64,000 bases of DNA. Origin: a virus (lineage: Duplodnaviria > Heunggongvirae > Uroviricota > Caudoviricetes). The notes beneath the pieces are model-generated. The model was not told the DNA's origin. It made no database searches and saw nothing but the letters and a program-made list of their open reading frames with translations. Positions 11,024-55,294 of the stretch are shown one piece after another (the stretch's first letter is position 1; each line of letters begins with the position of its first letter). Made by a program: the position numbers and the translations under genes. The stretch lies in the IMG/VR virus record IMGVR_UViG_2778261087_000003. One strand, written 5' to 3'.

Positions 11024-11224
11024 TTATCTGCTGCCCGGCATTCTCTGTTTAAGCACAACCATTTCCTGACGGCATAACACAGCAATAGCAGTCCTGGCTC
11101 CAATTTGCTTACCAACCAGGTATTGCTTTACCTCGCGGCGACTCACGCCATCAAGAAGCATCTTTAACGCTTCACGGGACAATTTGTTGTATTTGCGTGC
11201 CATTAATCTACTCCGCAGAACCAT
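11024..11224 (-). CDS. Small basic protein, 66 aa (position of P1 pdcA)
   Basis: Short ORF overlapping the doc 3' end. Confidence 0.3.
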
Positions 11225-11588
11225 ACAATCTACGTAACGTGTCGGCGACAGAAGATACAGATATCTCGCCAGTCGCAGCGCCTACAGTAAGGTCTGCCAG
11301 TTCAGGTGAATCAAATACCTGCACCCCGTTACGGCGTAGAAATAGCAGCGCGCTGTTTAGCGCGGTACGCTTATTGGCATCATTGAATATATGCCCTCTC
11401 GCTGTAGCCACCAGGTAGGTGGCGGAGACTTCGAAAAGGTCGGTGATCTCTTCGTAGGCAACTCTGGCCTGAACTCTCCCGATAATGGCCTCTGCCCTGC
11501 CCGGATCTGACATGCCAGGCAGGCCGCCGTAGCGGCTTATATTCGCATCATGAAGCGCAATAAGTTCTTCCGGTGATATATGCCTCAT
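11208..11588 (-). CDS. doc: Doc toxin (Fic-fold kinase), 126 aa
   Basis: 126-aa translation recognised as P1 Doc; ATGA overlap with the phd stop. Confidence 0.93.
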
Positions 11589-11809
11589 TATCGGTTAACC
11601 AGTTCCTTGTTGGTGGAGTCCAGGGTGTCAAACAGGGATGCAAATTCAGCATCCAGCGCCGCTTTTTTGTAGGCTTCGAAAGTAGCCTTGCTGACAATTA
11701 CTGCTGGCTCACGGCCTCTGCGGGTGATTTCAACCTCTTCCCCGGCTTCAACATTGTTGAGCACTTCAGAAAGGTTGCCACGCGCGGTACGGAAGTTAAT
11801 GGATTGCAT
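11588..11809 (-). CDS. phd: Phd antitoxin, 73 aa
   Basis: [73 protein letters not shown] from the internal ATG. Confidence 0.93.
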
Positions 11810-53189: not shown

Positions 53190-53699
53190 ATGGGGCACAA
53201 TAACACTAAGGGAAACCGTAAATTTATTAAGGGCCGCTATACTGCCAACGCGGCCAAAGGCGAACGACTGGTATCTTCTGAATTCCAGCTCACTTTTGCA
53301 GGCCATGAAGATATCAGCGTACTGGTTCGCACGTCGCAAATTCCTGAAATGACCCGCGAGGATGTGGAGGACTATGGTCCGAATGGTGTGAAGTTCAACC
53401 AGCACGGTCCAATTCGAAACTCTGGGGAAATCCAGGTCCAGTGCGTGGAGACTATCGAAGGCGATATTCTTCAGTTCATTAAAGATCGCATTGCGGCGAA
53501 GGACTATGTTGATATCACGATGGCTGCGACCCCTGAATCCAAATCTTCCGGGGTTAACGCTGTGACAAAAGCTGCTACAACAATTGAAATGTTGGACTGC
53601 AAAATCTACAGTGATGCAATCGACTTTAGTACCGAAGATGTGACTGCCGCTGTGCGCCCGTCACTTCGTATCGTCTACAACTGGATTGAGTGGGATTAA
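53190..53699 (+). CDS. Hypothetical 169-aa late protein
   Basis: ORF followed by a strong terminator. Confidence 0.4.
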   Translation: MGHNNTKGNRKFIKGRYTANAAKGERLVSSEFQLTFAGHEDISVLVRTSQIPEMTREDVEDYGPNGVKFNQHGPIRNSGEIQVQCVETIEGDILQFIKDRIAAKDYVDITMAATPESKSSGVNAVTKAATTIEMLDCKIYSDAIDFSTEDVTAAVRPSLRIVYNWIEWD

Positions 53700-53718
53700 G
53701 AGTCATCCCTTGTATTTT

Positions 53719-53745
53719 AAAGCTCCTTCGGGAGCTTTTTTATTT
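53719..53745 (+). terminator. Rho-independent terminator
   Basis: agctcc-ttcg-ggagct hairpin followed by tttttatt. Confidence 0.7.
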
Positions 53746-53815
53746 GGAGAGGAAAGGGTGCATTGAGGATACCTGACACACGAAGAGTGGCGAGGATCTC
53801 TCCCCGCTAGGTCTC

Positions 53816-53971
53816 TTACCTTTCAGATTCGTAGGCTGTGAAGACAGTGACCTCCGTCTGGCCGGTTCGGATTCGTACCTCGCAGAGGTCTTTCCTCGTT
53901 ACCAGTGCCGTCACAATGACGGTTAAACAGATGACGATCAGAGCGATTAACATCGCTTTTTGCTGCTTCAT
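53816..53971 (-). CDS. hok: Hok/Gef-family type I toxin, 51 aa
   Basis: MKQQKAMLIALIVICLTVIVTALVTRKDLCEVRIRTGQTEVTVFTAYESER; AGGAGAAG RBS; missed by the 60-aa ORF track. Confidence 0.9.
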   Translation of the reverse strand: MKQQKAMLIALIVICLTVIVTALVTRKDLCEVRIRTGQTEVTVFTAYESER

Positions 53972-54029
53972 AGCCTGCTTCTCCTTGACCTTTTGGTCGG
54001 TAAGAGGCTAATCTACGTATGCTAAGCAT
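53823..54029 (-). CDS. Mok-like overlapping reading frame (translational coupling frame for hok)
   Basis: 68-aa track ORF starting upstream of and overlapping hok in another frame, as in hok/mok/sok loci. Confidence 0.5.
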   Translation of the reverse strand: MLSIRRLASYRPKGQGEAGYEAAKSDVNRSDRHLFNRHCDGTGNEERPLRGTNPNRPDGGHCLHSLRI

Positions 54030-54152
54030 AGATATGGCCTCAGATTAATGTTAAGCGTCTTGCAGGACGCGTAATGTTATCTGGGGCTTTCTTCTATCTG
54101 CTTTTCGGGTAATGCCTGAAGCAGATAGCCTCAAGCACCCGCAACGATTGTA

Positions 54153-54398
54153 TCAATGTCTGGCTTTTTTTCTATAGAAATCACCTGGAAGGGTGAATAT
54201 CCACATCAGAAGAAATGTTGCAGCAAACATGATCCCTAATGGCCAGACCGCGCCAAAGAAAATCCATACTAAGATCTCCTCTGCTCGTTCTTTGCGGTCG
54301 ATATCGACAAGCATTTTTCGGCTGATCATGTATACACAGAAGCCAATACAAACATATCCTGCAAAAGCGATCGCTAACTGTAAAAAATCAGATTGCAT
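54153..54398 (-). CDS. Small two-helix membrane protein, 81 aa (internal start of track ORF 54153..54479)
   Basis: Hydrophobic segments LAIAFAGYVCIGFCVYMI and ILVWIFFGAVWPLGIMFAATFLLMWIF. Confidence 0.4.
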   Translation of the reverse strand: MQSDFLQLAIAFAGYVCIGFCVYMISRKMLVDIDRKERAEEILVWIFFGAVWPLGIMFAATFLLMWIFTLPGDFYRKKARH

Positions 54399-54429
54399 CT
54401 CCGACCTCAAACTGAAAACGCCAGGTGAC

Positions 54430-54446
54430 TCCAGATTAGAGCAATC
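54430..54446. promoter_or_regulatory. C1 operator-like half-site downstream of repL
   Basis: ATTAGAGCAAT core only. Confidence 0.35.
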
Positions 54447-54448
54447 TA

Positions 54449-55294
54449 TCACCCTCTGAATCCTGCCGATATACCCCATTGTTCGTTATCTTTATTTTTG
54501 GCTAAAACCGCATTAAGAGCTTCGTTTACCGTCATGCAATGCGGCAGATTATCGAAGTTTGATACCCCGCCAATATCAGGAGAACGCTTGTTCTTCAGGT
54601 AAGCATATTTCCGCGCTGCCGCCTCTACTTTCTGCTTGAACTCATGTTTTTGAGCGCGTTTTTTGGATAACCGCAGATTGTCAGCCTTTGCTTTTGCCTC
54701 AGCGATCCAGGAAGTCAAATTTTTGAGCCTGGTCGTTCCGGCACCGCCGGAAACTGATCTTTCTGTTTTTTTAACTTGTGACTTCTTATTCTTTATTGCC
54801 ACGTCATCCTGACAGGGGGAGGGGGTATCATTTTGACATGGGGGTGTGGATAAAAAATTAAATAAAGCCAATGTCTTAGCGAGAACAGCTTTAACCTTGG
54901 TTGCCGCTGAAGAGATCTTTAATTTGCTTTCAATCAGCGCATTTTTGGCTTGTTGTGCGAAGGCCAAAAATGATGGTGTAAACCGGTACAGGTTAGCGCG
55001 ACGTTCACGGTGATCGCCGATAACAATCTCTACAGACAGAATTCCTTTGTTTACAGCTTCACGGAATGCACGAACGACGGTTGATTGGCTATAACCAGTT
55101 TCTGCCGCGATCAGGCGGTGAGGCTTGTGAATGAAGTATTCACTGGTTGTTGCCGCGAGATTTGCACATTGCGACAGGATATGCCCGGCGCTACGGGATA
55201 GACCGGAGTGTGTTACAAAGCAGGCCAATTCATAGCCAGAAAAAGTAAAATCGCTCATCGTTATACAGCTCAGGAAAGTGACTTTAGCCAGCAT
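54449..55294 (-). CDS. repL: RepL, lytic replicon initiator, 281 aa
   Basis: 281 aa, directly downstream of kilA under a C1 operator. Confidence 0.8.
   Translation of the reverse strand: MLAKVTFLSCITMSDFTFSGYELACFVTHSGLSRSAGHILSQCANLAATTSEYFIHKPHRLIAAETGYSQSTVVRAFREAVNKGILSVEIVIGDHRERRANLYRFTPSFLAFAQQAKNALIESKLKISSAATKVKAVLAKTLALFNFLSTPPCQNDTPSPCQDDVAIKNKKSQVKKTERSVSGGAGTTRLKNLTSWIAEAKAKADNLRLSKKRAQKHEFKQKVEAAARKYAYLKNKRSPDIGGVSNFDNLPHCMTVNEALNAVLAKNKDNEQWGISAGFRG

Follow-up and report, generated by a model that had tools for sequence, protein, structure and literature searches.

What does a P1-like phage-plasmid carry between its late operon and repL, and what might that element do for its carrier? 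The window (the whole 64,000-nt stretch analysed here, IMG/VR record IMGVR_UViG_2778261087_000003, Caudoviricetes) belongs to such a phage-plasmid, and the locus in question lies between the late operon (bplB) and repL, with gp22, gp21, pmgG and bplB on one side and repL, kilA and ant1/2 on the other. An earlier note, made from the sequence alone, had described it as a Hok/Gef-type toxin gene with an overlapping mok-like frame and an expected antisense RNA. Our analysis of the DNA indicates that the locus is very probably a complete hok/mok/sok type I toxin-antitoxin module of the HokD/HokW lineage.

The hok toxin gene, found at the coordinates stated earlier, occupies 53971..53816 on the minus strand and encodes a protein of 51 aa (MKQQKAMLIALIVICLTVIVTALVTRKDLCEVRIRTGQTEVTVFTAYESER). 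We found that this protein matches Pfam PF01848 HOK_GEF (E=2.4e-22, 78.7 bits, cut-off 22; residues 6-47 on profile positions 1-42 of 42) and PHROG 251 'MokW-like host killing' (E=5e-32). The hok leader (54140..53966, minus strand) matches Rfam RF01794 over the full model (positions 1-157 of 157; 114.9 bits, gathering score 59, E=6.3e-27). Scores of this size are far above chance and show that the locus is real; the earlier reading of the ORF as a near-canonical Hok/Gef toxin with a good ribosome-binding site is borne out, the latter being AAGGAG at 53986..53981, 9 nt 5' of the ATG. Despite its name, RF01794 models the hok mRNA leader as far as the hok ATG.

Viral contigs were scanned with the Hok protein, which yielded 80 loci; together with the window these made 60 distinct unit sequences, 11 P1-type (window included) and 49 lambdoid-type. 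Hok is identical to the commonest lambdoid allele at 48 of 51 residues, the three differences (A42T, P48S, E51R) all being C-terminal, and the hok codons of the window differ from those of lambdoid alleles by 4-7 synonymous and 2-3 non-synonymous changes. Cys30, within KDLCEV, aligns with Cys31 of R1-type Hok and is hard-coded. Tyr47 is written TAC followed by G, and on reading the sequence we take this TACG motif (53833..53830, minus strand) for a candidate site of TadA A-to-I editing, which would convert Tyr to Cys. The pattern of the TadA-editable HokC/D/E genes is thus present: HokC, HokD and HokE combine the same Cys and TACG, and TadA editing recodes their Tyr to Cys (PMC5630033, PMC12214031).

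Upstream of hok begins the mok reading frame (54029..53823, minus strand, 68 aa), preceded by a Shine-Dalgarno sequence, GAGG, at 54041..54038, 8 nt 5' of its ATG; as had been proposed, it starts upstream of hok and overlaps it, and the two frames differ. The mok ATG is present in 59 of the 60 distinct sequences and the frame is open in every one of them. The 49 lambdoid-type sequences all have mok and hok in one frame, which makes Mok a 70-aa N-extended Hok. The P1-type sequences (the window and 10 others) have one extra T in a small hairpin 5' of the hok Shine-Dalgarno sequence, and this shifts mok into a separate 68-aa frame. Since mok is out of frame in all P1-type sequences, we regard the P1-type allele as a distinct variant inside the HokD/HokW lineage. 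In canonical R1, mok presumably also overlaps hok out of frame, and in the R1-type variant locus fetched for comparison the two are in frame. The frame relation therefore flips in both branches, which suggests that the amino-acid sequence of Mok is of little importance.

The predicted hok promoter lies at 54174..54147 on the minus strand. It combines a weak -35 (TAGAAA, 54174..54169) with a TG at 54155..54154 and a -10, TACAAT, at 54152..54147, and the promoter scan scored it at 9 of 12 matches as an extended -10 (TGaTACAAT, 54155..54147). The -10 ends 7 nt ahead of the predicted start G at 54140; it aligns with TATGAT of the R1-type locus, at an equal distance to the conserved 5' GG(C/G)..GCTTGAGG, the 5' sequence that follows TATGAT in the R1-type locus being GGCGCUUGAGG. 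From the start of the Rfam match and the end of the lambdoid homology we predict a full-length mRNA core of 385 nt (54140..53756). Our scan of the locus found no clean intrinsic terminator 3' of this end on the minus strand. Transcription of hok could first stop at the hairpin terminator of the bplB late operon at 53738..53719, recognised by terminator scan in P1 backbone homology that runs to 53741; the 3' end of the mRNA could reach this hairpin, giving a predicted length of ~385-420 nt. A further promoter-like site on the minus strand (54054..54025) falls within the leader; nothing in the family model corresponds to it, and it was taken as chance.

Folding of a 391-nt stretch of the hok mRNA gave a minimum free energy (MFE) of -150.2 kcal/mol (z = -7.4). 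In the MFE structure a tac-like 5' element (GGGUGCUUGAGG, 54140..54129) pairs with an fbi-like 3' element (CCUCAAUGCACCC, 53768..53756), so that the leader fold-back raised as a check on the locus is found in the predicted structure, with the leader intact over the full length of RF01794. The end helix has 12 pairs; across the 60 sequences 100% of its cells are paired, and the only variation is G-C to G-U. In the same structure the mok start region (54029..54012) is paired with 53786..53769 and the hok start region (53978..53963) with 53847..53831. Two further elements are a leader 5' stem-loop (54128..54094), seen in the MFE and in compensatory changes, and a G+C-rich 3'-UTR hairpin (53807..53790) that rests on the MFE and a compensatory pair, 344/353, and contains GGATCTCTCC (53793-53802). 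The tac-like element has an alternative local partner, AAGCCCC at 54089..54083, which is its partner in the RF01794 consensus. Since tac can pair with either fbi or AAGCCCC, both arms of a switch exist. When the 3' 41 nt (53796..53756) are removed in silico, the 5' end is predicted to fold locally, with 54023..54012 unpaired.

An antisense RNA had been expected on the plus strand near 53990-54070. Its strand and the existence of a gene stand, and the range has to be redrawn: the predicted Sok promoter (TTGACC-18 nt-TAATCT) occupies 53985..54014, and the predicted Sok RNA of ~71 nt runs from 54021 to 54091, by gap-free transfer of the sokW annotation of phage 933W. The original range spans the promoter and half of the predicted RNA. 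The promoter scan did not call the Sok promoter, because its -10, TAATCT, has only 3 of the 6 consensus bases; we accepted it on reading the sequence for its position and its match to the antisense strand of the R1-type locus, where TTGCGC-17-TATCCT has the same position and architecture. The predicted Sok would have a free 5' tail, a long hairpin (54036..54088) and a U-rich tail to ~54096, with a fold of -33.2 kcal/mol (z = -5.05). Across the mok start codon and the Sok 5' tail lies a hypervariable patch (54012..54037), with a mean column entropy of 0.62 versus 0.06 in the hok CDS and 20 haplotypes among the 60 sequences. This patch likely determines Sok-target specificity. A plus-strand Rfam 'sok' match at 54083-54231 (21 bits, below the gathering score) reflects the palindromic 5' stem, and matches to CRISPR-DR46 (on the bplB terminator hairpin), ceN48 and sbrA, likewise below gathering scores, were taken as chance.

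Is this fold under selection? We placed the window's own MFE structure on the 60 sequences and found standard pairs in 93.5% of cells versus 35-43% with partners slid, a comparison biased in favour of the structure because one of the sequences in the alignment supplied the structure. Changes on both sides of a pair were seen in 83 cells, against 31 in shuffles (0 of 500 reached 83) and 0-12 when slid. Within the 5' stem, pair 15/47 goes from A-U to G-C in 8 sequences and pair 21/41 from C-G to U-A in 11; compensatory pairs also occur in the long-range helix that sequesters the mok start and in the 3'-UTR hairpin. By this sequence comparison, the hok mRNA fold is kept by compensatory changes between P1-type and lambdoid alleles. 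Moreover, homology between the two types has its 3' limit at 53756 in all 49 lambdoid-type loci and its 5' limit in most loci within 54167..54140, for the most part between 54152 and 54142. These limits coincide with the fbi end and with the -10 or transcript start, and we count this as selection on the unit. The conserved unit spans 53756-54152, and the functional unit would cover ~53756-54155, or extend to 54174 if the weak -35 is included. The box of 53816-54100 drawn in the earlier note was thus in the right place and too small.

The locus is part of an accessory cassette. Homology to P1 (NC_005856) ends at 53741 and restarts at 54435, and the 693 bp between these breakpoints (53742..54434) stand in place of 1826 bp with pmgF-rlfB-rlfA in P1 and P7; classical P1 therefore has no hok here, in agreement with the earlier note. 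At the right junction, 54435..54445 (minus strand) is a remnant of the C1 operator Orlf (ATTGCTCTAAT, 11 of 17 bp), identified from the P1 annotation and the breakpoint. Besides hok/mok/sok the cassette carries a second gene, for a predicted membrane protein of 81 aa (54398..54153, minus strand; PHROG 3772, E=6e-54, 81 of 81 positions), which PGAP gives as a 246-bp hypothetical CDS. It has GAGG upstream and was found only in P1-like phages. A 108-aa form starting at 54479 was rejected, since PHROG 3772 and PGAP both fit 81 aa; a weak Pfam match to B12D, under the cut-off, was set aside. Between the body of this ORF and the hok promoter lies a weak terminator-like hairpin (54196..54181).

The bplB-repL interval is a hotspot, at which no fewer than three alternative cassettes occur. 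In RCS47, 673R5 and SJ46 a plus-strand ORF takes the place of 53742..54002, and 54003..54268, with the hok leader and the sok region, is kept; in the 673R5 remnant the Sok region is identical to that of the window. Retention of leader and sok points to descent from a hok-bearing form, which is the most likely origin of these toxin-less types. Among PLSDB records, 262 cover at least 80% of a 1-kb probe spanning both cassette junctions and at least 217 are uninterrupted over the probe (left junction, fbi, 3' UTR and hok 3' end), compared with 99 that have the classical pmgF-rlfB-rlfA arrangement. The window-type arrangement was found in 235 of 5426 complete E. coli genomes. Hence, classical P1 is unrepresentative of natural P1-like phage-plasmids at bplB-repL.

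The novelty that the earlier note implied does not hold, because the locus is already known from public records: NCBI PGAP gives near-identical loci the name hokD in P1-like plasmids by the hundred, and one phage record has the locus as MokW. The substitution itself was mentioned by Venturini et al. in 2019 as '2 orfs including antibacterial toxin' (PMC6906374), which is the nearest report in our literature search for hok in P1-like elements; that search found no paper naming hok in such an element. Many related plasmids have an IS186/IS421 element in the hok 3' UTR. In pUTME-8-1 an IS421-family transposase adjoins hokD at a position matching the 3'-UTR site of the window, and in pSvP1 an IS186B is flanked by the target duplication GGATCTCTCC (Venturini et al., PMC6906374), which is window 53793-53802 in the hok 3'-UTR hairpin. 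No IS element was found in the window. Taken together, the IS186/IS421-carrying plasmids and the toxin-less P1-like phages show that the module is dispensable.

How would the module work? Transcripts, half-lives, toxicity and biological role of the window allele we infer from homology with R1 hok/sok and Sp5 hokW-sokW, and a hok mRNA that is end-paired and under antisense control, its translation coupled to that of mok, is on this basis highly probable. A weak constitutive promoter would give a stable hok mRNA of ~385-420 nt. The full-length form would be translationally inert, with its 5' end (54140..54129) bound to 53768..53756, the mok start bound to 53786..53769 and the hok start to 53847..53831. 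Slow 3' trimming would strip away the 3' partner, upon which the 5' end would refold locally and the mok start open. As long as the element is present, the short-lived Sok of ~71 nt (54021-54091, plus strand) would pair with the mok start region, block translation of mok and hence the coupled translation of hok, and mark the duplex for RNase III. Once sok transcription stops, Sok would decay first and Hok would be made, insert in the inner membrane and collapse the membrane potential.

In a plasmid prophage of low copy number, such a switch would most likely kill the cells that lose the plasmid, besides the action of phd-doc, which is also in the window (11809..11211), as had been stated. Post-segregational killing by the window locus is what we infer from its relatives. 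Against it we count that the window allele belongs to a prophage/chromosomal lineage and that chromosomal hokA, hokB and hokC give no killing after plasmid loss, as earlier work is summarised in a 2026 preprint (bioRxiv 10.1101/2025.08.07.668861). The same switch could also fire on prophage induction. It is possible, if doubtful, that the role of the locus lies there, in the lytic cycle: induction would remove Sok, and Hok would permeabilise the inner membrane before holin and endolysin act, advancing lysis and raising phage release. Such a role shares the molecular mechanism proposed above and differs in biology only. Among close relatives it is the one role that has been demonstrated, for the 87.8% identical locus of Sp5, where mitomycin C causes RecA-dependent loss of sokW and production of HokW, and deletion of hokW-sokW delays growth arrest by ~40 min and halves phage release (PMC8621323); it may coexist with killing. 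In addition, prophages that do not depend on plasmid maintenance are enriched in hok (bioRxiv 10.1101/2025.08.07.668861). The position of the locus, directly downstream of the induction-controlled kilA-repL operon and the C1 operator remnant, also agrees with a lytic function, but the terminator-like hairpin at 54196..54181 stands between the body of the 81-aa ORF and the hok promoter. Furthermore, P1 already encodes a holin, an antiholin and a lysozyme, and its classical form needs no hok for good lysis, which we count against a lysis role.

Defence against other phages seems unlikely to be the function. Here an invader would halt host transcription, Sok would decay and Hok would kill the cell first. 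On a high-copy plasmid, R1 hok/sok lowers T4 plating by 42% and plaque size by ~85%, as cited in PMC8621323, and defence cargo is frequent at accessory hotspots of prophages and phage-plasmids, of which bplB-repL is one. However, the anti-T4 effect of R1 was modest and needed the high copy number, and a large survey found hok not enriched near defence systems (bioRxiv 10.1101/2025.08.07.668861). One could also suppose that the locus, though structurally complete, is silent in the manner of the hok loci on the E. coli K-12 chromosome and persists only by hitch-hiking on the plasmid. The allele falls in the lineage of HokD, K-12 hokD itself is truncated, IS186/IS421 insertions in the 3' UTR are common, toxin-less derivatives exist, and Tyr47 may need TadA editing for full toxicity, with hokD edited at 6% (PMC12214031). 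Yet all elements are intact, the fold is kept by compensatory changes and most codon differences in hok are synonymous; expression of HokW or of HokD is toxic (PMC8621323; bioRxiv 10.1101/2025.08.07.668861), and the hypervariable Sok-recognition patch argues that the antisense interaction is still under selection. With its elements intact and its fold so maintained, the locus is unlikely to be a silent passenger.

Killing and lysis might also be joined in one system, a proposal that we put forward as a long shot. The locus would serve addiction in the plasmid state and become a C1-linked lysis aid on induction: once C1 is lost, transcription coming from kilA-repL and from the operator remnant (54435-54445) would cross the 81-aa ORF and enter the locus, and this read-through, opposing the Sok promoter, would silence Sok and time the release of Hok. 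Leader-plus-sok remnants of the 673R5, RCS47 and SJ46 type would act as anti-addiction elements that neutralise the hok of a competing P1-like plasmid. If true, this would account for the loss of sokW in Sp5, and an arms race over cross-talk would have left its trace in the hypervariable Sok-recognition patch.

The cassette is common in P1-like elements that spread resistance genes, so that many of them have, next to phd-doc, what may be a second addiction module. This may affect their persistence and curing, although the practical consequences are small. Automatic annotation marks the toxin CDS only, and the mok frame and the predicted Sok gene and mRNA ends given here would complete it. The lineage also offers a natural test series, with intact, IS186-split and toxin-less loci and with mok in or out of frame.

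Among known systems, the window locus is closest to hokW-sokW (mokW) of Sp5 / VT2-Sakai, with 87.8% DNA identity over 53756..54143, and the window unit, from 54152..54142 to 53756, is 86-91% identical to the 49 distinct lambdoid loci. It shares with the hokW-sokW loci of Sp5 and 933W a 51-aa Hok, the same leader hairpins and a 71-nt antisense RNA at the same position, and like them it is carried by a temperate phage. It differs in its out-of-frame 68-aa mok (70 aa and in frame in the lambdoid loci), in the sequence of the Sok 5' tail and target patch, and in its host element, a plasmid prophage, whereas hokW-sokW sits on an integrated prophage. For Sp5, Takada et al. (2021) showed HokW to be toxic and identified the 71-nt sokW as its antitoxin, with a contribution from RNase III and Hfq (PMC8621323).

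With hok/mok/sok (parB) of R1 the window locus has in common the tac-fbi end pairing, the mok Shine-Dalgarno sequence and start within the Sok target, a Sok promoter overlapping the hairpin 5' of the hok Shine-Dalgarno sequence, that sequence itself (AAGGAG) and the TACG of the C-terminal Tyr. The end pair differs, GGGUGCUUGAGG/CCUCAAUGCACCC in the window versus GGCGCUU/AAGCGCC in the R1-type locus, and the Sok hairpin of the window is 16 nt longer than the Rfam consensus. We put the identity between R1 Hok and the window Hok at ~44%, a value transferred from the comparison of HokW with R1 Hok (PMC8621323). A blastn search in distant mode reached no R1-type locus from the window DNA, the two being too diverged, and the R1-type locus used for comparison was retrieved by tblastn with the R1 Hok sequence, to which its Hok is identical. 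By analogy with R1, stabilisation of a low-copy plasmid by the window locus is plausible.

The K-12 relative hokD (relF) has ~91% DNA identity to the window over the coding region and 3' UTR, and its protein is toxic when overexpressed (bioRxiv 10.1101/2025.08.07.668861). K-12-type strains match the window at 53756..53985 only, and from this limit it follows that K-12 hokD is without the mok start, leader, Sok gene and promoter; unlike this truncated locus, the window copy is complete. The other addiction module of the element, phd-doc, has the same presumed outcome, death of plasmid-free cells. However, hok/sok bears no sequence or mechanistic relationship to phd-doc, a type II addiction module in which a protein antitoxin is degraded by ClpXP and the toxin is a Fic-family kinase.

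By comparing the window region 53600-54600 with PLSDB and with RefSeq E. coli genomes, we found that the hok cassette is commoner than the classical P1 arrangement at the bplB-repL site (217-262 versus 99 PLSDB plasmids). Of 5426 complete RefSeq genomes of E. coli, 235 also have the window-type hok arrangement. The right breakpoint of the cassette falls within the C1 operator Orlf, as placed by the P1 annotation: ATTGCTCTAAT is retained (window 54435-54445, minus strand) and the final 6 bp are swapped. A weak promoter-like sequence, TTCAGA-16-TAATCT, found by sequence inspection, overlaps this remnant upstream of an 81-aa ORF with hydrophobic segments (PHROG 3772; window 54153-54398, minus strand), which lies directly downstream of repL. 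The ORF is confined to P1-like phages, its SJ46 homologue being 44% identical. Extending the frame to a start at 54479 gives a 108-aa reading that overlaps the stop of repL; this longer form is probably unused. The window also carries phd and doc of P1 (11211-11809, minus strand), which in tblastn with P1 protein sequences were 100% (Phd, 73 aa) and 99.2% (Doc, 126 aa) identical.

In the P1-like phages 673R5, RCS47, and SJ46 the hok ORF is gone and a plus-strand ORF of 172-210 aa occupies its place, with the hok leader and the entire sok region retained. The segments corresponding to window 54003-54268 are L089:2995-3260 (673R5), L086:3000-3266 (RCS47), and L088:1862-2121 (SJ46). A plausible sok promoter, TTGCTC-18-TAATCT, is predicted in these remnants, and the Sok region of 673R5 is identical to that of the window. 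The remnant could be an orphan antitoxin or a mere scar.

A 26-nt patch (window 54012-54037) that takes in both the start codon of mok and the 5' tail of Sok is hypervariable among the 60 aligned hok sequences, with a mean column entropy of 0.62 versus 0.06 for the hok CDS. The patch has 20 haplotypes in the 60 sequences, and hokD/hokW loci are near-identical elsewhere. E. coli genomes with at least one copy of such a locus have a median of 2 and a maximum of 10. The variability of the patch looks like diversifying antisense specificity among co-resident loci.

The hokC and hokE loci of E. coli K-12 carry IS186 at a similar position to insertions seen 3' of hok in relatives of the window. With a probe covering the bplB junction, fbi, the 3' UTR, and the hok 3' end, matches were split in 3 of 12 rows from an evenly spaced sample of PLSDB matches. 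In pUTME-8-1, an IS421-family transposase lies immediately 3' of hokD (L090:2739-3851). The G+C-rich hairpin of the hok 3' UTR contains GGATCTCTCC (window 53793-53802), matching the IS186B target duplication reported for pSvP1 (PMC6906374). Insertions of this kind cut hok off from fbi, its pairing partner. The copy in the window is free of IS elements.

Finally, P1-type and lambdoid-type loci are distinguished by a 1-nt insertion, the extra T in GGTCAAGG (region of window 53995; column 155 of the hok-unit alignment A1). In P1-type loci mok encodes 68 aa out of frame with hok, whereas in lambdoid-type loci it shares the hok frame, giving an extended Hok of 70 aa. The R1-type IncFII locus (L087) has mok in frame with hok, like the lambdoid-type loci and unlike the window.
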